Shown here piece by piece: positions 2,959-59,686 of a stretch of 64,000 nucleotides of DNA. The first letter of the stretch is position 1, and each line of letters starts with the position of its first letter. The stretch lies in NCBI GenBank assembly GCA_002419365.1, contig DIGA01000117.1, positions 12,261 through 76,260 of the forward strand. Direction: 5' to 3'. Under the pieces are notes generated by a model, which worked only from the letters and a program-made list of their open reading frames with translations, was not told where the DNA came from and did no database searches. The stretch comes from Mageeibacillus sp. UBA5734. Its GTDB lineage: Bacteria; Bacillota; Clostridia; Saccharofermentanales; UBA5734. The position numbers were made by a program, and so were the translations under genes.

Positions 2959-4824
2959 TCAGACGATCCTTTTGAACTGCTTTTCCAGCTCATAACGGCT
3001 GATCCGGATGATGACCGGACGGCCGTGAGGACAATGGTACGGATCCTCCAGTTCACCCAGATCTGACAAAAGCTGTTCCATTTCACGGACATCCAGCTTG
3101 TCATGCGCCTTGATGGCAGCTTTGCAGGCCATGGAGTAATACAGCTCATCGATTTGTTCTTCCGAGCGCAATTTGTCCGACATCAGGGTGTCGAGGAGTA
3201 CACGGATCGCAGCCTGTGGCCTGAGGACAAAACGGCCACTGTCAGGCAGGCTGCGCAGGAGAATGGACTGGTTGCCAAACGCTTCGAATTCAAAGCCCAG
3301 CTGCAGGAGGTTTTCCTGCTCAGCCAGAAGGATCGCCTGTTCCCTGGCCGATACTTCGATGGTCTGGGGAATCAGCAACGGCTGGACGGCTGCCGGACCC
3401 CGGGCCCGGTGGCGAGCGACCAGCTGCTCAAACAAAATCCGTTCATGAGCAGCATGCTGGTCCAGGAGCAACAGATCCTGCTCATGCTCCAGAACCAGAT
3501 AGGTGGCAAATAGCTGGCCGATCAGGCGCGCCGAATGCAGGCTGGAGATCGACTTGGGCCGGGAGATTGTCGAGGGTTCCGGCTGGCTCTGTTCCAATTG
3601 GTGATCTGTTTTTTCCTGCATGGTTTGAGCGACAACCTGGTCCGGCAAGTCTGACCTGGCAGGTGCATCCTGAATGACGACACCAGACAGATCTGGTCCA
3701 GCCGCAACTGGATCTGTCGCATAGCCTGCAGCAGCCGAGGCTGGTTCGTTGACCGGTCGTGGCAAGGACATCTGGACCGGAGCTGGTGCAGGGGCGTGGA
3801 CAGCACCAGAAAAGGGCGTGCTTTCGACAATGGCACCACCCGACTGCAGGGCGTTCTGGATGCCATGGTAGACGGCCCGGAAGACTGCTTGTTCATCCCA
3901 GAAACGGACTTCCATTTTCTGGGGATGGACGTTGACATCGACCAGTGGGGTGGGCAGATCGATTTTCAGGACTGCCAGGGGGTGTTTGCGCTTCATCAGG
4001 TGTGTGGCATAGGCTTCGTCGATGGCGGCACTGACTGCGCGTGATTTGACCAACCGGCCATTGACATAGATGCATTGCTGGTTTCTGCTGTTGCGGGCTG
4101 CTTCAGGGGTGCCAATATACCCTGAAATTTGGACCGGAGCCATTGTGTAGTCCAGTTGATGGATCGAACTGGCAGCTTCTTTGCCAAAAACTGCAAAAAT
4201 GGCGCTGCGCAGGTCATTGTTGCCCGGCGTATGGAGCAATTCATTGCCTTGGCTAACGAGCCGAAACGACACATCTGGCCGGGCCAGGGCGATCCGTTCC
4301 AGGACATCAGCCACTGCTGCCGCTTCTGAACTGTCTTTCTTCAAGAATTTAAAACGGGCCGGGGTGTTGAAAAAGAGATTTTCGATGACCAGGGTTGTTC
4401 CTTCCGGGCAACCTGCCGGTCGTAGAGCGACCAACTCCCCTGCCGTGATTTCGACCGCTGTTCCACTGGCCTGGCCGATAGGACGCGTTTCGAGCCGGAC
4501 TTTGGCCACAGCAGCGATGCTGGCCAGGGCTTCTCCACGAAAACCCATGGTGGAAAGTTGTTCAAGGTCATCGATCGAGCGGATCTTGCTGGTGGCATGA
4601 CGGCCAAATGCCAGCTGGGCATCGGTTTCATCCATGCCGCAGCCATTGTCAGTCACCCGGATGGAGCTGATTCCACCTTGGCGAATCTCGACATGGATCA
4701 CCGAAGCGCCCGCATCGAGGGCATTTTCGACCAGCTCCTTGACCACGGAGGCAGGGCGTTCGACCACCTCACCGGCGGCGATGCTGTTGGCAGTCTGGGT
4801 ATCCAGGACCGTGATGACACTCAT
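2959..4824 (-). CDS. mutL: DNA mismatch repair endonuclease MutL
   Basis: GEVVERPASVVKELVENALDA, GFRGEAL, DQHAAHERILFE, ACKAAIK and CPHGRP motifs. Confidence 0.98.
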   Translation of the reverse strand: MSVITVLDTQTANSIAAGEVVERPASVVKELVENALDAGASVIHVEIRQGGISSIRVTDNGCGMDETDAQLAFGRHATSKIRSIDDLEQLSTMGFRGEALASIAAVAKVRLETRPIGQASGTAVEITAGELVALRPAGCPEGTTLVIENLFFNTPARFKFLKKDSSEAAAVADVLERIALARPDVSFRLVSQGNELLHTPGNNDLRSAIFAVFGKEAASSIHQLDYTMAPVQISGYIGTPEAARNSRNQQCIYVNGRLVKSRAVSAAIDEAYATHLMKRKHPLAVLKIDLPTPLVDVNVHPQKMEVRFWDEQAVFRAVYHGIQNALQSGGAIVESTPFSGAVHAPAPAPVQMSLPRPVNEPASAAAGYATDPVAAGPDLSGVVIQDAPARSDLPDQVVAQTMQEKTDHQLEQSQPEPSTISRPKSISSLHSARLIGQLFATYLVLEHEQDLLLLDQHAAHERILFEQLVARHRARGPAAVQPLLIPQTIEVSAREQAILLAEQENLLQLGFEFEAFGNQSILLRSLPDSGRFVLRPQAAIRVLLDTLMSDKLRSEEQIDELYYSMACKAAIKAHDKLDVREMEQLLSDLGELEDPYHCPHGRPVIIRISRYELEKQFKRIV

Positions 4825-51721: not shown

Positions 51722-53074
51722 ATGAAAGTCTGCAAGTTTGGTGGTACTTCCCTCGCAAATGCCGAACAGATCCGTAAAGTCTGTGACATCGTCCTCAGTG
51801 ACCCTGAACGCCGGATCATGATCGTATCCGCACCGGGCAAACGCACCCGGGAAGACATCAAAGTGACAGATCTCCTGATTGCCCTGGCGAATGCCCGGAT
51901 CAGTGGATATGATGGCGAGAGCGAACTGGCCTCGGTTGTCCGCCGCTTTGCCGACATTGCCGAGGAGCTCGAGCTCGGTCCGGAGATCGTCGCTACCATA
52001 GAGCAGGACCTTCGCTTCCGCATCGAAGCTGATCCAGCCAATTCCCTCAAGTTCATGGATTCGCTCAAAGCAGCCGGCGAAGATAACTGTGCCCGTCTGG
52101 TCGCGGATTATCTCCAGAGCATAGGCAAGAAAGCCCAGTATTTCGACCCGAAAACGGCTGGCATGGTCCTCAGTGACGAATTTGGCAATGCCCAGGTCCT
52201 GGATGAATCCTACCCCCGGCTGGCCCAGCTCAGGGATTATCCGGGCATCGTTGTGTTCCCGGGATTTTTTGGATACACCCGCTCTGGTGAGGTCGCCACT
52301 TTCTCGCGCGGCGGTTCGGACATCACCGGGTCGATTCTGGCTGCGGCAGTCGAGGCAAAGGTCTATGAAAACTGGACGGACGTCGATTCTGTCTATGCCG
52401 TCAACCCCAACCTGGTCAGCAATCCCCATGCCATTTCGGAGATCACCTACGACGAAATGCGGGAGCTGGCCTACGCCGGTTTTACGGTCCTGCACGAGGA
52501 AGCCCTGACACCCGCCTACCGCAAAGCCATTCCGGTCAACATCCGCAATACCAATAACCCGTCCGCCCGTGGGACCATGATCGTGCGCAATCGCATCAAT
52601 TTTGACAGCATCGTCACGGGTATTGCCGGAGCCAAGGGTTTTTGCACCTTGAACATGTCCAAATACCTCATGAACCGAGAAGTTGGCTTTGCCTTGCGTG
52701 TCCTCCAGATCCTGGCTGATGAGTTCATCCCCTTTGAGCACATGCCATCCGGCATCGATTCCCTATCCATCGTCATGCGCCAGGAAGTGTTCACGCCAGA
52801 AAAGGAGAGGCATGTTGTGCGTCGCCTGGTCGATGAGATCGGCATCGAAAAGATCTCGGTAGACCGCAACTTGGCGATTGTCATGATTGTCGGCGAAGCC
52901 ATGGCCCACACCGTCGGTGTCACCGCCCGGGCAGCCAATGCCTTGTCCAAGGCCGGTGTCAACCTCGAAGTCATCAACCAGGGCGCCTCGGAAATCAGCG
53001 TCATGTTCGGAGTCCGTGAAGAATATTGCAATTATGCGGTCAAGGAGTTGTACAAGGAGTTCTTCAACCGCTAA
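51722..53074 (+). CDS. lysC: Aspartate kinase (Bacillus AK III/YclM-like)
   Basis: KFGGTSLA, VSAPGK, TFSRGGSDITG, WTDVD and C-terminal ACT domains. Confidence 0.9.
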   Translation: MKVCKFGGTSLANAEQIRKVCDIVLSDPERRIMIVSAPGKRTREDIKVTDLLIALANARISGYDGESELASVVRRFADIAEELELGPEIVATIEQDLRFRIEADPANSLKFMDSLKAAGEDNCARLVADYLQSIGKKAQYFDPKTAGMVLSDEFGNAQVLDESYPRLAQLRDYPGIVVFPGFFGYTRSGEVATFSRGGSDITGSILAAAVEAKVYENWTDVDSVYAVNPNLVSNPHAISEITYDEMRELAYAGFTVLHEEALTPAYRKAIPVNIRNTNNPSARGTMIVRNRINFDSIVTGIAGAKGFCTLNMSKYLMNREVGFALRVLQILADEFIPFEHMPSGIDSLSIVMRQEVFTPEKERHVVRRLVDEIGIEKISVDRNLAIVMIVGEAMAHTVGVTARAANALSKAGVNLEVINQGASEISVMFGVREEYCNYAVKELYKEFFNR

Positions 53075-54947
53075 ACAGCGACCGCGCCTCCTGGTCAATG
53101 ACCAGGCTCGCCTCAAAAAAACGCTCCAGGCGATACAGTCCAGGATGGGTCAGGCTAAAGCCGCTCACCTGGACTTTGTCTGTGTAGACGGTGTGTTCAT
53201 TCCGGACAATGTAAGGGGTAGCCCCCAGTCCGCTGAAGACTCGGATCCCCTGGCCTTCCAAAAACTGGCGCCGGGGATCGTCGGCCTGAAGCACTGCGCC
53301 ATTGGGGAAGGACAAAGCCGTAACAGGTCCTGTCAGAGATTCGATCTGGGACTGCCATTTGGCCCAGTCCGACTGGACCTGCTCCAGACTGGCATTCTGG
53401 AGATTGATCATGCCATAGGTCGACGTGCCGATCTGCCATCCTGTCCTTAGCAGCTGGCGGATGATGGCCTGGACCTGGGTGCGATTGGCCTCATAATCTG
53501 CTGGACCCAGAACCAGTTCCGGATAGCCCAGTGCTGCCAGGGCCCGGTTTTTATCGTCGAGCTGGTCTGGATCAGTCACCCGTCCGAAAACACCCTCATA
53601 GCCAGACAACGTGATCAACCCTTTGGCTCCATCGAATGAAAAATCCGGATGTGCCTCGACGAATGCATCGAGGATGCCGACGGCCTCGGATTCGCGCCGG
53701 ACGATCAGGTTGCCATCCGGGCCGGGCCACACACCACAGACTTGCCCGGATGCATCCAGCTGCAAATCCCAGCAATTGCCCGTCGCTCTGCGGGTGACGA
53801 AATAGTTCAGCCCTTCCAGAACCAGAACCAGTGGCTTCTTGCCTTCCGGCAGTTCGAGTGCAAACCGCTCCCCTGCCCCGGTCATCAGGCGGGACTGGTC
53901 AACCAGGATGTAGTCATTGGCATACAGGGCTTCAAGAATGCGTTCGAATTCCAAGGTCGTCAGCATGGTGTCGAAAGCAGCTGCCGCATAGGGGTCTCTG
54001 TCGAAAGCCGTTACCGGATCAACGATCAGCGGTTTGATCACCAGGTGCTCGATGGCACCACGGAAGGTCTCCAGTTTCCGGGGAATTTTCTGGCTGCACT
54101 GGTCCAGCGCATCGAGGACAGTCTGGTCCCCCGGGAAGACTGCCTGCAATTGCAGCAATTGGCCATAGGCCGTGACCGTACGATTCTGGCTCACCAGGTC
54201 GAGGGCATCATCCAGCAAAGGCTGGTACATGGCAGTCCTGCAGACCTCCAGTTTCTGGCGGGCAAAGTCCTGGGCAAAGGTTCCTGGCCCAGCCGTATCA
54301 GCCAATTCAGACCAGGCCGCATAGGCTTCATACCACTGCTTGTGCAGCAGCATCTGGTCTGCAGCAATGAAGTCCGGTTTTAAATCTGGCCAGGACGAAT
54401 ATTCGCTCCTCAAGGGGCGTACACTGTCCTTGAGATTAGGTAGATCGGATAACTGGTCGATGGCGAGGGACAAGGTCTTGTATTCGCTCTCGCCCATCAG
54501 GTAGGCGCGGCTCAATTCCCTGGCAAACCGGGACAGGCGCAAGCCGGATAATTCGCCCAATCCGAGAATAAAGGCCTGGTCTGCAGCTGCAAGAGGTTGT
54601 CCCTGCAGCAGCTGGCTTTCGATGGTCTCGAGACGCCCAGACAGTAAGGATTCCAGTTCCGCCAGGGTTTTCTGGTAGGGATTCTCCACCTGTCCGGACT
54701 GCAAGGGTTGTACGGCATTGGCCTGGACTTCACGGTAAATCTCAAGCGCCTTGATATAATCCTCGTCCTCAAGGGCCGATTCGAAATCAGCCCGGGCGAG
54801 TTCTGCGCTCTGCTGATTGCGTGCGATCAGGAACAAGATGATGCTGGCAAGTACAAGCACTGCAGCCAGACTGAGCAGCAGGAACGAATGGAGTCGGGAC
54901 TTGGTTTCCCTGGATGAGCGGACATAAAGCTGATTGGCCATGGTCAA
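53064..54947 (-). CDS. Membrane-anchored protein with helical region and a degenerate CE4 polysaccharide-deacetylase-like domain
   Basis: Single N-terminal TM; EFERILEALYANDYILV and GKKPLVL resemble Bacillota deacetylase-like proteins, but the metal ligands are absent. Confidence 0.65.
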   Translation of the reverse strand: MTMANQLYVRSSRETKSRLHSFLLLSLAAVLVLASIILFLIARNQQSAELARADFESALEDEDYIKALEIYREVQANAVQPLQSGQVENPYQKTLAELESLLSGRLETIESQLLQGQPLAAADQAFILGLGELSGLRLSRFARELSRAYLMGESEYKTLSLAIDQLSDLPNLKDSVRPLRSEYSSWPDLKPDFIAADQMLLHKQWYEAYAAWSELADTAGPGTFAQDFARQKLEVCRTAMYQPLLDDALDLVSQNRTVTAYGQLLQLQAVFPGDQTVLDALDQCSQKIPRKLETFRGAIEHLVIKPLIVDPVTAFDRDPYAAAAFDTMLTTLEFERILEALYANDYILVDQSRLMTGAGERFALELPEGKKPLVLVLEGLNYFVTRRATGNCWDLQLDASGQVCGVWPGPDGNLIVRRESEAVGILDAFVEAHPDFSFDGAKGLITLSGYEGVFGRVTDPDQLDDKNRALAALGYPELVLGPADYEANRTQVQAIIRQLLRTGWQIGTSTYGMINLQNASLEQVQSDWAKWQSQIESLTGPVTALSFPNGAVLQADDPRRQFLEGQGIRVFSGLGATPYIVRNEHTVYTDKVQVSGFSLTHPGLYRLERFFEASLVIDQEARSLFSG

Positions 54948-57145
54948 ATGCCATCCAGGCCAACTTGCCGGTTCTCCAGCGTGCTTTCCTTCAGATAAGT
55001 CCCGACCGCAGGCAAAGTCTTGGCCCGGTAGTAGTTGGGTTCGATAATGGCTGTTTCGCCAAGGCGCTTCAAACTGGTCATGGTGCTGCCTTTTTTGGCC
55101 AGCAACACTTGCACCCCCTGGGTTGTGCGGGTTGTTTTAATTGGAACCAGTTCGCTGTTGAAGACCAGCACCTTGCGGATGCTGCTTACAGCGACAAAAT
55201 CTTCCGGATCGGTCAGGAAGCAGATGGCAGTCAAGGGCGAAGCTGTACTGAAGGCGTTGACCAGTTTTTTGCGGTTGGTTTTGGTTTCATAATACAGGCA
55301 AGGCAAGCGCACCAGTTTACCATTGGTAAACCCGATCAGGAACTGGCCGGAGTAATCTTCAGTCAGGTGAATGAACACAACTCGTTCACCCTCATCCAGG
55401 CTGAGCAGGTTGGGGGTGAATTCGCCGAAGTCGGATGGTTTGTGGTCCTTGATTTCAAAGACTTTCATCTTGTAGACATTGCCCTGGTTGGTAAACAGGA
55501 GCAAGTCCATTTTATTCTTGCCTTCGATCTCCTGGACGATCTGGTCATCTTCCTTCGTCTTGAGATCACCCGCGCTACGCAGAGAAGTCAGCGGGATTTT
55601 CTTGATGTAACCATGGTCCGTCAGGAAAATCCGGAGCTTGAAGTCCTCGATCAATTCATGGTCGGCGATGCGTTCGACATCGTCCGTGTGGACCAGGGTC
55701 GTCCGGCGTTCTCGGCCATGCTTTTTTGCCACAGCCTTGAGCTGCTCGATGATTTTCCGGTCGATTTTCTCCTGGTCGCCCAGCAGATCTTCCAGGGCTG
55801 CTATTTCCTCGGTCAGAGCCTTGATGTCGGCGATCCGTTGCAGCAGATACTGGCGGTTCAGCTGGCGCAGACGGATTTCCGCGACATACTCGGCCTGGAT
55901 GGCATCGATGGCAAAACCATCCATCAGGTGCGGGATGACATCACTTTCCTGCTCGGTTTCCCGGATGATCTTGATCGCTTTGTCGATATCGAGAAGGATC
56001 AGTTCCAGGCCCCGGAGCAAATGAAGCCTGTCCTGCTTCTTGCCCAGCTCGAAAGCGATTTCGCGCCGCAGGCACGACCTGCGCCAGGCATGCCACTCGC
56101 CGAGGATCGATCGGATGCCCATCACTCTCGGGGTGCCATTGACCAGGATGTTGAAATTGCAGGCAAACGAACTTTCCAGCGAGGTCAGGCGGAAGAGTTT
56201 CTGCATCAGGGCCTGGGGATCGGCAGAACGTTTGTAGTCGATCGTCAGTTTGAGGCCCTCGAGGTCGGTCTCATCCCGGACATCATTGATTTCCTTGATC
56301 TTGCCGGTTTTGACCAGATTGGAAATGTCATCGATGATCGCTTCGACGGTCGTCGTGTAGGGGATCTGCAGGATTTCGATGTAGCCATTTTTCTTGTCAA
56401 CCTGGTAAGTGGCCCGCAGCTTGAAACTGCCCCGGCCGGTCTGGTAGATCTGGCGGATCTCCTGCGGATGGTAGATCAGTTCCGCCCCGGTAGTGAAATC
56501 GGGTGCCTGCAGATGCTCTTCGATGTCGCAACCCGGATCCCGAATATAGGCAATCGTGGCCGCACAGACTTCAGAGAGATTGAAGGAGCAGATATTGCTG
56601 GCCATGCCAACAGCAATCCCCTGGTTGCTGTTGACCAGGATCGAGGGGAATGTGGCCGGCAACAGAACGGGTTCCTTCATGGTCCCGTCATAGTTGTCAA
56701 CCAGATCTACACTGTCTTTGTCCAGTCCAGAGAAGATTTCCTGGCAGATCGGATCAAGGCGCACTTCCGTGTAACGGGCAGCGGCGTAATGCATGTCTCG
56801 CGAATAGATGCGGCCGAAATTGCCCTTGGAGTCGATATAGGGGTGCAGCAGGGCATCGTTACCGCGGGTCAGGCGCACCATGGTTTCATAGATGGCCTGG
56901 TCGCCATGCGGATTGAGCTTCATGGTCTGGCCGACAACATTGGCCGATTTCGTCCGGCTACCTGACAGCAAGCCCATCTTGTACATGGTGTAGAGCAATT
57001 TGCGATGGGAGGGCTTGAAGCCGTCGATCTCCGGGATGGCCCGCGAGACAATGACGCTCATGGCATAAGGCATGTAATTGTTTTCCAGGGTCGTCGTAAT
57101 CGGCTCCTGGTGGATAGGTGCTGAAAGTGAGGCTGGTTTGGTCAT
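54944..57145 (-). CDS. Type IIA topoisomerase subunit A (ParC/GyrA-like, no GyrA-box)
   Basis: IDGFKPSHR, PHGD, AAARYTE catalytic Tyr and a short CTD lacking QxRGGKG. Confidence 0.93.
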   Translation of the reverse strand: MTKPASLSAPIHQEPITTTLENNYMPYAMSVIVSRAIPEIDGFKPSHRKLLYTMYKMGLLSGSRTKSANVVGQTMKLNPHGDQAIYETMVRLTRGNDALLHPYIDSKGNFGRIYSRDMHYAAARYTEVRLDPICQEIFSGLDKDSVDLVDNYDGTMKEPVLLPATFPSILVNSNQGIAVGMASNICSFNLSEVCAATIAYIRDPGCDIEEHLQAPDFTTGAELIYHPQEIRQIYQTGRGSFKLRATYQVDKKNGYIEILQIPYTTTVEAIIDDISNLVKTGKIKEINDVRDETDLEGLKLTIDYKRSADPQALMQKLFRLTSLESSFACNFNILVNGTPRVMGIRSILGEWHAWRRSCLRREIAFELGKKQDRLHLLRGLELILLDIDKAIKIIRETEQESDVIPHLMDGFAIDAIQAEYVAEIRLRQLNRQYLLQRIADIKALTEEIAALEDLLGDQEKIDRKIIEQLKAVAKKHGRERRTTLVHTDDVERIADHELIEDFKLRIFLTDHGYIKKIPLTSLRSAGDLKTKEDDQIVQEIEGKNKMDLLLFTNQGNVYKMKVFEIKDHKPSDFGEFTPNLLSLDEGERVVFIHLTEDYSGQFLIGFTNGKLVRLPCLYYETKTNRKKLVNAFSTASPLTAICFLTDPEDFVAVSSIRKVLVFNSELVPIKTTRTTQGVQVLLAKKGSTMTSLKRLGETAIIEPNYYRAKTLPAVGTYLKESTLENRQVGLDGI

Positions 57146-57173
57146 GGAGAAACTCCTCGTTAGTGCAAAAACT

Positions 57174-57269
57174 TAGCCGACGTCGAGATTGATCAAGACC
57201 AACACCACGTCGGCTAGCCGACGTCGAGATTGATCAAGACCAACACCACGTCGGCTAGCCGACGTCGAG
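57174..57269. repeat. 41-bp tandem repeat (2 full copies plus 14 bp) with embedded palindromes
   Basis: Unit TAGCCGACGTCGAGATTGATCAAGACCAACACCACGTCGGC at 57174-57214 and 57215-57255; partial copy at 57256-57269 overlaps the subunit B stop. Confidence 0.97.
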
Positions 57270-59240
57270 TTGGTCTAGGTATTTGTGGCCGTTTTGCTCA
57301 ATGAAGGTTTTGCGGCCGGCCAGATTGTCGCCGAGAAGCAAGTCGAATGTTTCAAGCATATCTTCGGCTTTGTCTGGCATGACTTGGATCAGGCGGCGGG
57401 TCTCCGGATTCATCGTGGTCAGCCACATCATTTCCGGTTCGTTCTCGCCCAAGCCTTTGGACCTCTGGATGGTGCAGCGGTCTGCACCCAGCTTGGCCAG
57501 CAGGTCACTCTTTTCCCGTTCGGTATAGGCAAAAAAGGTTTTCTCTTCCCGTTTGATCCGCTGGGTGATTTCAAAGAGCGGGGACTCCGCAATGAAGATC
57601 TTCTCTCTATCCAGCAAAGTCGGAGTCAGGCGGTAGAGCATGGCCAGGATCAGGGTCCGGATCTGGTAGCCATCGACATCGGCATCGGTGCAAATGATGA
57701 CTTTGCTCCAGCGTAGGCCGTCCAGGTCGAAAGATGACAAGTCCTTGTTGTGGCGGGAATGGATTTCGACACCGCAACCGAGGACTTTGATCAAGTCGAC
57801 GATGATTTCATTCTTGAAGATTGCCTCGTAATCAGCCTTGAGGCAGTTGAGGATCTTGCCGCGCACGGGAATAATGGCCTGGAACTCCGCATCGCGGCCC
57901 ATCTTGCACGATCCGAGCGCGGAATCGCCTTCGACGATGTACAATTCGCGGCGGGCAACATCCCGGGTCCGGCAATCGACAAATTTCTTGACCCGGTTGG
58001 TCAGGTCGACGGAGCCCATCAATTTCTTCTTGATGTTGAGGCGCTGCTTTTCGGCACTTTCCCGGCTGCGCTTGTTGACCAGGACCTGTTCCAGAACCCG
58101 GTCGGCTTCAGCCTTGTTCTCAATGAACCAGATCTCGAGTCGGCTGCGCAGCAGATCGGTCAGGAACTCCTGGATGTATTTGTTGTTGATCGCTTTCTTG
58201 GTCTGGTTTTCATAACTGGTCTGCGTGGAAAAGGAATTGGTGACCAGGATCAGGGAGTCCTCGATATCGGCAAAGGTGATCTTGGCTTCGTTATTCTTAT
58301 ACTTGTCCTGCAGCTTGGCCTGGCGGTCGAATTCATTGACCAGGGCATTGCGCACGGCTTTGTCCGGAGATCCACCATATTCCAGCCAGCTCGAGTTGTG
58401 GTAATACTCGATCAAGTTGATTTCGTTATTGAAGCAGAGTGCCACTGAGGCTTTAACCTTGTATTCCGGTTTGTCAGAACGATCGCGGCCTTTGCCACTG
58501 CCTTCAAAAAACAATGGGCTGGAGATGCCTTTTTCCTGGTCCAGCTCCCGGACAAAGCCCAGGATGCCTTCAGGATAATAAAACTCCTCGGTTGTGCCGG
58601 ATGGTTCATCATGCAGGCGGAAAGTCACGCCCGCATTGACAATGGCCTGGCGCTTCAAGGTCTGCTGGAAATAGTCAAGCGGAATCATGATGTCGGTGAA
58701 GACATCCCGGTCTGCTTTCCATTTCTGGGTGGTCCCGGTCTGTTTCTGCCGTATGGGTGTCTTCGTCAAGCCGCCAACATTATTGCCCTTTTCAAAATGC
58801 AAATCGTAGCGGAAGCCATCCCGCACGACTGAAACATCAAAATATTCAGAGGCGTACTGGGTGGCACAGGCACCCAGGCCATTGAGACCGAGGCTGAACT
58901 CGTAATGGTCACCACTGATGTTGTTGTATTTGCCGCCAGCATACAGTTCGCAATAGACCAGCTCCCAGTTGTAGCGGTTTTCTTTTTCGTTGAAATCCAG
59001 AGGAATCCCACGGCCCTGGTCTTTGACCTCGAGCGATCCGTCCTTGTAACGCTTGACCTCGATCAGGTTGCCATGCCCTTCCCTGGCTTCGTCGATCGAG
59101 TTGGATAAGATTTCGAAAAACGAATGTTTGCAGCCCTCCAGGTCATCGGATCCAAAAATGACACCTGGGCGAAGACGGACCCGGTCGGCCCCCTTCAAGG
59201 CAGAAATACTGGTGTTGTCGTAGGCTTTGCTTTTGGTCAT
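57255..59240 (-). CDS. Type IIA topoisomerase subunit B (ParE/GyrB-like)
   Basis: RLRPG, EILSNSIDE, DQGRGIP, GLNGLG, EGDSA, PVRGKILN and DADVDG motifs. Confidence 0.95.
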   Translation of the reverse strand: MTKSKAYDNTSISALKGADRVRLRPGVIFGSDDLEGCKHSFFEILSNSIDEAREGHGNLIEVKRYKDGSLEVKDQGRGIPLDFNEKENRYNWELVYCELYAGGKYNNISGDHYEFSLGLNGLGACATQYASEYFDVSVVRDGFRYDLHFEKGNNVGGLTKTPIRQKQTGTTQKWKADRDVFTDIMIPLDYFQQTLKRQAIVNAGVTFRLHDEPSGTTEEFYYPEGILGFVRELDQEKGISSPLFFEGSGKGRDRSDKPEYKVKASVALCFNNEINLIEYYHNSSWLEYGGSPDKAVRNALVNEFDRQAKLQDKYKNNEAKITFADIEDSLILVTNSFSTQTSYENQTKKAINNKYIQEFLTDLLRSRLEIWFIENKAEADRVLEQVLVNKRSRESAEKQRLNIKKKLMGSVDLTNRVKKFVDCRTRDVARRELYIVEGDSALGSCKMGRDAEFQAIIPVRGKILNCLKADYEAIFKNEIIVDLIKVLGCGVEIHSRHNKDLSSFDLDGLRWSKVIICTDADVDGYQIRTLILAMLYRLTPTLLDREKIFIAESPLFEITQRIKREEKTFFAYTEREKSDLLAKLGADRCTIQRSKGLGENEPEMMWLTTMNPETRRLIQVMPDKAEDMLETFDLLLGDNLAGRKTFIEQNGHKYLDQLDVG

Positions 59241-59294
59241 GGAAACTCCTGCTTCTTGTCAGAATCGCTTCATTATAGCACAGGCAACCGAGGC

Positions 59295-59331
59295 AAAAAA
59301 TGGACCGCTCCCTTGATCAAAGGAGCGGTCC
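59295..59331 (-). terminator. Terminator after tRNA-Arg
   Basis: Minus strand GGACCGCTCC...GGAGCGGTCC-ATTTTTT. Confidence 0.8.
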
Positions 59332-59408
59332 TGGCGAGCCTAGGAGGACTCGAACCTCCGACCCACAGCTTAGAAGGCTGTTGCTCTATCCAACTGAGCT
59401 ATAGACCC
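59332..59408 (-). tRNA. tRNA-Arg(TCT)
   Basis: Reverse complement GGGTCTATAGCTCAG...ACAGC-CTTCTAA-GCTGT...GTTCGAGTCC...GCCA. Confidence 0.95.
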
Positions 59409-59461
59409 ATGTCTGCCCTGTCCCTGTCCTGATTATACAAAAACGAGGCGGGACGAGGCAA

Positions 59462-59484
59462 GAAAATGGCGGCCCGTGGCCGCC
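59462..59484 (-). terminator. Possible terminator after tRNA-Gly
   Basis: Minus strand GGCGGCC-ACG-GGCCGCC-ATTTTCT. Confidence 0.5.
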
Positions 59485-59497
59485 CTGCAGGCGATGT

Positions 59498-59571
<74 letters not shown>

Positions 59572-59686
59572 AGATAAAAGTCAGCGCCGATCTGCCCGTT
59601 GATTTTACCGCATCATATCTGGTTTGTCCACACCCAATCTTTCAGCCGGTCCGTCCGGTCCGTCTTCAACCCTGAACTCCATTTTG

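Follow-up and report, generated by a model that had tools for sequence, protein, structure and literature searches.

Repetitive extragenic palindromes (REPs) form dispersed families of hundreds of copies, which are mobilised by REP-associated tyrosine transposases (RAYT) (PMC3116915, PMC3337134). In PMC12306157, exonucleases are described as being blocked by REP hairpins (citing Newbury 1987), and ribosomes as being stalled by palindromes that lie at most 15 nt from a stop codon (citing Liang 2015). Template switching has also been described as able to make and to maintain hairpins, multibase compensatory changes included (PMC8794818). In this report, we describe a quasi-palindromic tandem repeat with a period of 41 bp, located between the genes for subunits B and A of a type IIA topoisomerase in Mageeibacillus sp. 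UBA5734. The DNA analysed, referred to as the window, is a stretch of 64,000 nucleotides (contig DIGA01000117.1 of assembly GCA_002419365.1, positions 12,261 to 76,260, forward strand), and all coordinates given below are those of the window unless another locus is named. The repeat is likely to be locus-specific and derived from the 3' terminus of the B gene itself, as a product of local replication that has a weak effect on the operon.

Anatomy and copy number of the repeat

The B gene (57255-59240, minus strand) was identified from the list of open reading frames (ORFs) and their translations, and encodes a protein of 661 aa with the C-terminus ...KYLDQLDVG*. Its 3' codons are CTA GAC CAA CTC GAC GTC GGC, followed by the stop codon TAG (57255-57257). 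These last seven codons (57258-57278, minus strand) constitute arm a, the source that has been re-copied in the spacer. Inspection of the sequence and of repeat alignments revealed two identical 41-nt units in the spacer, each built of an arm b (GCCGACGTGGTGTTGGTC), TT, an arm a' (GATCAATCTCGACGTCGGC) and TA. On the minus strand, arm b1 (57238-57255) repeats arm a in inverted orientation, save for two mismatches (GGTG for CGAG), and arm a'1 (57217-57235) repeats the gene end directly, with a C to T change and one extra T, and is followed by TA(G). The second unit has the same order, with arm b2 (57197-57214) being the same as b1 and arm a'2 (57176-57194) being followed by TAA; both arms were recovered by Tandem Repeats Finder (TRF), by a search with the 39-mer described below and in the list of direct repeats. 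Past the second unit lie the short U run AGTTTTTG (57173-57166), 2-3 nt beyond the last stem, then the GAGGAG ribosome-binding site and the ATG of the A gene.

The array was delimited by TRF at 57174-57269 (minus strand; period 41 bp, 2.3 copies, 100% identical). Written as the 39-mer GCCGACGTGGTGTTGGTCTTGATCAATCTCGACGTCGGC, the unit is present twice on the minus strand (57176-57214 and 57217-57255), and no further copy was found in the 64-kb window at up to three mismatches (shuffles matching, 0/100). Across 20-29 nt, complementarity between the inverted arm and the gene end amounts to 90-93%, and the direct copy a' matches the gene end perfectly over 14 nt, or over approximately 25 nt with two substitutions and an inserted T. 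The unit has terminal inverted repeats of 8 nt, or of 10 nt when the flanking TA is included, because it was the gene end that was copied. The perfect 18-bp palindrome ACGTCGGCTAGCCGACGT is centred on the B stop codon (57248-57265) and occurs again at the junction of units 1 and 2 (57207-57224); a palindrome search returned these two copies at the locus, none elsewhere in the window and none in shuffles. As arm a' retains the in-frame stop of the gene, each unit also contains a predicted mini-ORF, read from the sequence of the minus strand: the first is GTG GTG TTG GTC TTG ATC AAT CTC GAC GTC GGC TAG (MVLVLINLDVG*; 57214-57249), and the second (57173-57208) specifies the same peptide as GTG...TAA. 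The U run reads TTTTC in the alleles with one unit and with none, and is therefore older than the hairpin. A CRISPR-like array was considered and ruled out, the 'spacers' being identical and the copies numbering just 2.3.

The anatomy described here agrees with that given in the original prediction, which was made by a model from the letters alone. It had listed a TA-bounded 39-bp unit with terminal inverted repeats, on which TRF, the 39-mer search and the repeat list agreed, and a palindrome at each junction, with the gene's stop at a hairpin apex. It had further listed a diverged inverted copy and then a direct copy of the gene end, one mini-ORF per unit ending in LDVG*, and a U run past the last hairpin, and these were likewise recovered.

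The window is 100% identical across 12.7 kb to the Joint Genome Institute (JGI) contig SCADCLC_10003188 (L002), so that the full read-through of two units comes from one assembly. Short-read assemblers can get tandem-repeat counts wrong, and a miscount, in which all strains would in truth have one unit or the repeat would be chimeric, was therefore weighed. Four independent assemblies (L001, L003, L004 and L005) carry a single unit next to the same B protein, and the one-unit order a-b-a' is also present in a GenBank metagenome-assembled genome (MAG) of a sister lineage, which speaks against such an error. The strains with two units (the window and L002) are divided from those with one by a linked single-nucleotide polymorphism, TTTTT versus TTTTC. 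Moreover, the Logan assembly of SRR5325361, a sequence 100% identical to the window, is interrupted inside the unit, where one contig stops and the next one starts. Logan assemblies use k=31, and the two contig ends coincide exactly with the 31-mers through which the loop made by at least two units is entered and left in a de Bruijn graph at k=31; the one-unit allele has no branching 31-mer, and one-unit strains assemble straight through. Because the one-unit form was obtained in four assemblies, and because the k=31 contigs break at the 31-mers that bound the loop, the repeat is genuine and the presence of at least two copies in the window strain is independently backed. The assembly artefact against which the original prediction had cautioned was not borne out, and a miscount is extremely improbable.

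Distribution among relatives and origin

The spacer from the B stop to the A start was compared across approximately 90 loci from uncultured Clostridia related to Saccharofermentans/Fastidiosipila-type MAGs. The window lineage and locus L007 were the only ones in which the gene end had been re-copied both in inverted and in direct orientation, L007 being the window's closest relative in the GTDB (B gene 87% identical in nucleotides, 97% in amino acids). Apart from L097, described below, the other relatives, approximately 70 more distant ones, showed no such re-copy, and had ordinary spacers of 0-300 nt with matches at background level. The B gene of the window is 91% identical in nucleotides to that of L087, which belongs to the population without units described below, and the B gene of L007 is 87% identical to either; near the 3' end of the gene the three become about equidistant.

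The array of L007 reads GACCAGCTCGACGTCGGG TAA / CCGACGTGGTGCTGGTG TT GACCAGATCGACGTCGGG TAA / CCGACGTCGAG TTTAGAGGAG. Its arm b contains the same two mismatches as arm b of the window (GGTG for CGAG), which points to a single origin in the common ancestor, and separate origins in the two lineages were rejected on this ground. All three L007 arms track the gene end of L007 itself, with CAG/CTG/CAG against CAA/TTG/CAA in the window and GGGTAA against GGCTAG. An extra arm of L007, b', matches the reverse complement of arm a perfectly; as it is without the two mismatches, it represents a second, later template switch and no slipped duplicate of b.

We propose that in the common ancestor of the three close lineages a template switch would have made a copy of the gene's final ~25 nt on the opposite strand (arm b), and that synthesis would then have gone back upstream and copied the same nucleotides again, the stop codon included (arm a'), giving a-b-a'. 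The direct repeat of 40-41 nt thus made would have grown and shrunk by slipped-strand misalignment to give the alleles with 0, 1 and 2 units present today. In one lineage an in-register deletion of 41 nt would have taken the unit out, with a' left to form the new end of the gene (Q to N), and in L007 a second template switch would have brought the further inverted arm. A template switch is favoured because of the adjacent inverted copy, the return upstream, the microhomologies at the junctions, the later multibase matching changes and the recurrence of the event. The microhomologies are short, being TA between a and b (a-TA-b) and CT between b and a' (b-CT-a'). The locus has the marks of a template-switch quasi-palindrome, namely an inverted copy beside its source, a single switch and return, and microhomology, together with those of a variable number tandem repeat (VNTR) arising by slippage, namely identical head-to-tail units and a copy number that is polymorphic between close strains. 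One of the two origins put forward in the original prediction, a template-switch triplication that later became a VNTR, fits the anatomy, the 0/1/2 allele series and the comparison with the sister lineage.

The allele with no unit was found in a population (P0001) of 15 contigs, L087-L096 and L100-L104. It has a spacer of 27 nt and reads ...CTC GAT AAT CTC GAC GTC GGG TAA / GTTTTCGCGCTAACGAGGAG, with the protein tail LDNLDVG*; the tail is LDQLDVG* in the window, in L007 and in several distant relatives. The AAT-CTC string of this allele fits the a' copy (CAAT/CTC) and not arm a (CAA/CTC). When one 41-nt period was deleted from the one-unit allele at offset 29-30, the product ended in ...YLDNLDVG*, as does the natural zero-unit tail. 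This product differs from the natural allele by 6 nt, the fewest of the deletions compared, and a deletion that retains Q differs by 8. The sequences are therefore suggestive of a secondary loss, with the re-copy taking over as the end of the gene. An ancestral empty site was considered less likely, given that the unit is present in L007, the outgroup to the clade in which the zero-unit allele groups with the window, and that the N codon of this allele equals that of the a' copy. Of the empty site foreseen in the original prediction, ...GTCGGCTAAGTTTTTG, a natural counterpart does exist, ...GTCGGGTAAGTTTTCG, but it looks like a secondary deletion and not like an ancestral site.

Five contigs of the same population, L100-L104, are recombinant haplotypes with a B gene of the zero-unit L087 type (6-54 differences). 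In L101-L104 the A gene starts as in the window type, with an identical 5' end, and L100 has an L087-type A start and a B gene that is itself mosaic. It follows from these mosaics that the zero-unit and unit-bearing populations exchange DNA, with breakpoints near the spacer.

Some of the results weigh against an origin by local replication followed by homogenisation and loss. The derivation of the zero-unit tail from a' rests on a margin of two substitutions. Between the window and L007 the unit has 7/41 differences, compared with 39.5% at 4-fold sites (P = 0.002), and one stem pair is altered on both sides, from U-A to C-G. The double-sided change could reflect selection on RNA structure instead of mutational homogenisation, and the lower divergence of the unit is fitted equally well by selection on structure and by homogenisation against a constrained coding arm. 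Likewise, the lack of a dispersed family of low copy number was established for 64 kb of this genome.

Two further observations were made on the gene end in relatives. Locus L097 (P0005, 90% aa identity; 3440-3530) has its own, differing gene end re-copied directly, with no inverted arm: CTCGATATTGGATGA / TGATATTAA CGATATCGGATGA TTTTG, with a score over the background of ~70 other relatives. The re-copy in L097 hints at a susceptibility of the gene end, in which the LD(V/I)G codons hold an 8-bp palindrome (CGACGTCG / CGATATCG), to such events.

RNA structure and alternative explanations

The region has an RNA fold z-score of -6.6, well outside what chance would give. The end of the B gene folds to -59.9 kcal/mol, compared with a mean of -22.0 (sd 7.7) over 47 gene ends in the window, of which the next best reaches -31.1. 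In the fold of the one-unit allele, pairing of a with b (-26.8) sets the stop codon in the loop, and pairing of b with a' (-23.1) is the alternative. When arm a was masked, as if covered by a ribosome, the register of the whole array shifted, so that the last a' was paired and a GC-rich stem abutted AGUUUUU; this was seen with 1, 2 and 3 units, and in the unmasked folds the last a' was free. A consensus scan for terminators and promoters called none in or beside the unit on the gene strand. By hand, a 10-bp perfect stem base could be followed to AG and then to UUUUU in the two-unit allele or UUUUC in the one-unit allele, with only UUU in L007. No Rfam family reached its gathering score, and the best matches were miRNA-precursor models (28-32 bits against gathering scores of 69-75), which are generic long hairpins.

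The distance from the B stop to the ATG of A is 109 nt with two units, as in the window, and 68 nt with one. The ribosome-binding site of A, GAGGAG (57158-57153), lies ahead of the ATG (57145-57143), the two spanning 57143-57158 on the minus strand as judged from sequence and folds. In the predicted fold its GGAG is base-paired with a CUCC right before the AUG (GAGGAGUUUCUCCAUG, 57143-57160), in a small local hairpin that is predicted to be identical in the alleles with 0, 1 and 2 units. The predicted probability that the ribosome-binding site is unpaired is 0.17-0.21 with 0, 1, 2 and 3 units, and occlusion of the site by the units was ruled out on the ground of this equal accessibility. The local hairpin is of interest in itself, as translation of A may need ribosomes coming from B, regardless of the 41-nt repeat.

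In the mRNA, the arms would form a very stable stem-loop spanning the last codons and the stop of B. Such a REP-like intercistronic barrier would hinder the terminating ribosome and 3' exonucleases and would loosen the coupling of B to A, and the level of A would fall somewhat relative to B as the copy number rises. The element is probably a mutational product, for which a REP-like effect that is small and not under strong selection is the most probable one.

The original prediction proposed that the array may act as a translation-coupled attenuator with a tunable copy number, which was weighed here as one under selection. As the arms are odd in number (a, b, a', b, a'), one of them stays unpaired; with ribosomes on a, the last a' would pair, and the GC-rich hairpin beside AGUUUUU would stop or pause transcription before A, so that the copy number would tune the A:B ratio. 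In its favour, folding with and without the ribosome-covered region gave exactly this register shift for 1-3 units, the last arm switching to a hairpin beside the U run. A U run does follow the last stem and resembles the tail of a genuine terminator close by (A+TTTTTT), and the structure has been kept across ~40% synonymous divergence, with arms that co-vary and fewer changes than at neutral sites. However, the consensus scan calls no terminator, the U run begins 2-3 nt past a stem that contains mismatches and is already there in the hairpin-less zero-unit allele, and the accessibility of the ribosome-binding site and the AUG is the same at any number of units. In addition, L007 has four arms, a reversed polarity and only UUU after the stem, zero-unit strains are common (15 contigs), and the ribosome placement that would permit b:a' pairing while RNA polymerase is on the U run appears to be a narrow window. 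A selected attenuator is, for these reasons, unlikely. The bolder idea of a 'register-shift' attenuator, in which the odd-armed array would relay the ribosome occupancy of B's last codons and the mini-ORFs may relay terminating ribosomes, is more doubtful still; if it were true, 41-nt slippage would act as a heritable and reversible dial of the B:A ratio in a type IIA topoisomerase. It is very improbable that the element acts at the level of DNA, with its 18-bp palindromes serving as the operator of a dimeric protein or as a cruciform, supercoiling-sensitive site in the topoisomerase operon. The two perfect palindromes, the longer quasi-palindromes and the position between topoisomerase subunit genes are suggestive of such a role, and gyrase acts at REP clusters, also known as bacterial interspersed mosaic elements (BIMEs), in E. 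coli; on the other hand, the palindrome is imperfect in L007 (centre GGGTAACC) and absent from the zero-unit strains and from all other relatives, and the rest of the window holds no half-site that matches.

The other origin suggested in the original prediction was an ultra-short MITE (miniature inverted-repeat transposable element) related to IS630; such an element, or a REP-like mobile one, would have inserted at TA with duplication of the TA target site and would then have been duplicated. The terminal inverted repeats of 8-10 nt with TA on either side agree with this, as does the single TA kept by the natural unit-less allele, and a site right after a stop codon is typical for REPs (PMC12306157). 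However, the stop codon itself supplies the TA flanks, and what is duplicated of the flank is 14-25 nt of the gene end, not 2 nt. Inside the unit lies the reverse complement of the gene that flanks it, the C-terminal LDVG codons, being kept in relatives without the unit, are native, and the unit of L007 carries the synonymous variants of L007 itself together with its TAA (GGGTAA, CAG). The usual size of MITEs exceeds 39-41 bp. A blastn-short search with the unit found no other copy in the window and 109 loci (0.92 Mb in all), and a scan of viral contigs gave 0 matches. Scans of metagenome contigs with the unique core and with a degenerate b+a' pattern also gave 0 matches, in a collection that missed L001-L003 as well and was hence uninformative. 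Among the hallmarks of MITEs, the unit thus has terminal inverted repeats, its sequence is related to its flank, and dispersed copies were lacking from the DNA searched; among those of REPs and REPINs (REP doublets forming hairpins), it has the GC-rich imperfect palindrome of 20-40 nt near a stop codon (39-nt unit), and no high-copy dispersed family was seen in the same DNA. The MITE option was abandoned on this evidence, and we regard a mobile origin as barely credible.

Operon context and comparison with known systems

The A gene (54944-57145, minus strand; ORF list and profile models) encodes 733 aa. The B protein matches the NCBIfam models for GyrB/ParE with E values of 1e-148 to 1e-104, yet remains under all curated cut-offs, and the A protein, with strong matches to GyrA/ParC models, is likewise under every one of them. 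The scores lie far under the NCBIfam cut-offs for GyrB and GyrA as well as for ParE and ParC (for example, gyrB 482 versus 882 bits). As both proteins match these models strongly but below every curated cut-off, the B-A pair (54944-59240) is a divergent type IIA topoisomerase paralogue, and it is widespread in Saccharofermentans-like Clostridia MAGs.

On the minus strand 5' of the B gene (59200-59600), a tRNA-Gly(tcc) (59498-59571) and a tRNA-Arg(tct) (59332-59408) were found, with a terminator-like hairpin after each; of these hairpins, the one at 59331-59302, followed by ATTTTTT, is strong. An extended -10-like sequence, TGCTATAAT, is present at 59280-59272, ~30 nt ahead of the B start. With these tRNA terminators and the -10-like site upstream, the topoisomerase operon seems to be served by a promoter of its own, with a short leader. 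On the other side, an ORF of 625/627 aa (53064-54947, minus strand) begins a few bases from the A stop and accompanies B-A in all close relatives, forming a conserved third gene of the operon; it matched no Pfam family above threshold, with a weak match to Polysacc_deac_1 at 19.9 bits.

The locus provides a clean natural case in which a strong RNA hairpin would have arisen in one step from coding sequence and would then have been matched, amplified, lost and recycled. It supports the idea that apparently compensatory evolution of stems can be mutational (PMC8794818). It also calls for caution, in that, unless comparative data are at hand, TA-flanked palindromes should not be equated with mobile elements, nor a hairpin and U run with regulation. 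Any effect is probably modest, in an organism that is uncultured; if the hairpin does shift the A:B ratio, the series of alleles with 0, 1 and 2 units would be a ready test set.

Several known systems resemble the repeat in part. It shares with ribosome-dependent attenuators (trp-type leaders, pyrBI) mutually exclusive hairpins set by ribosome position and a U run after the last of them; here, however, they would lie at the end of a 661-codon gene without a leader peptide, with a weak U tract, and the logic is neither kept in the sister lineage nor present in the zero-unit strains. MITEs with TA duplication (IS630/Tc1-mariner derivatives, such as the Correia elements of Neisseria) likewise have terminal inverted repeats, TA ends and unit-less alleles that keep one TA, whereas the present unit is far shorter (39-41 bp), is homologous to its flank in its interior and ends, repeats 14-25 nt of flank, and was without dispersed copies in the DNA searched.

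The likeness to template-switch hairpins (PMC8794818) comprises an inverted copy beside its source, a near-perfect stem from one event, later multibase 'compensatory' changes that keep the arms matched, and recurrence at the same site (b' of L007). In contrast to these hairpins, the return here landed upstream, so that the source and the stop were also re-copied directly (a'), the product then acted as a 41-nt tandem repeat, and the re-copied end appears to replace the true gene end in one lineage. As in bacterial VNTRs, the head-to-tail copies are perfectly identical and their number differs between near-identical strains; unlike them, the repeat has a long period of 41 nt, an inner palindrome, a very low copy number and an overlap with the stop codon.

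The best functional analogy is with REPs and BIMEs of Enterobacteria, which are also GC-rich imperfect palindromes of 20-40 nt right after stop codons, often in operons, and are also clustered in alternating orientation. Their effects, as given in PMC12306157, are to stabilise the upstream cistron by barring exonucleases and to stall the terminating ribosome if the palindrome is within 15 nt of the stop. REPs are dispersed in hundreds, whereas the 41-nt unit belongs to a single locus and comes from the neighbouring gene. The locus would work most like a REP/BIME hairpin, would have arisen like a template-switch quasi-palindrome and varies like a VNTR. The processes involved are probably ones already known, with two uncommon touches: a stop codon at the centre of a palindrome, and a copy probably recycled as the gene end.

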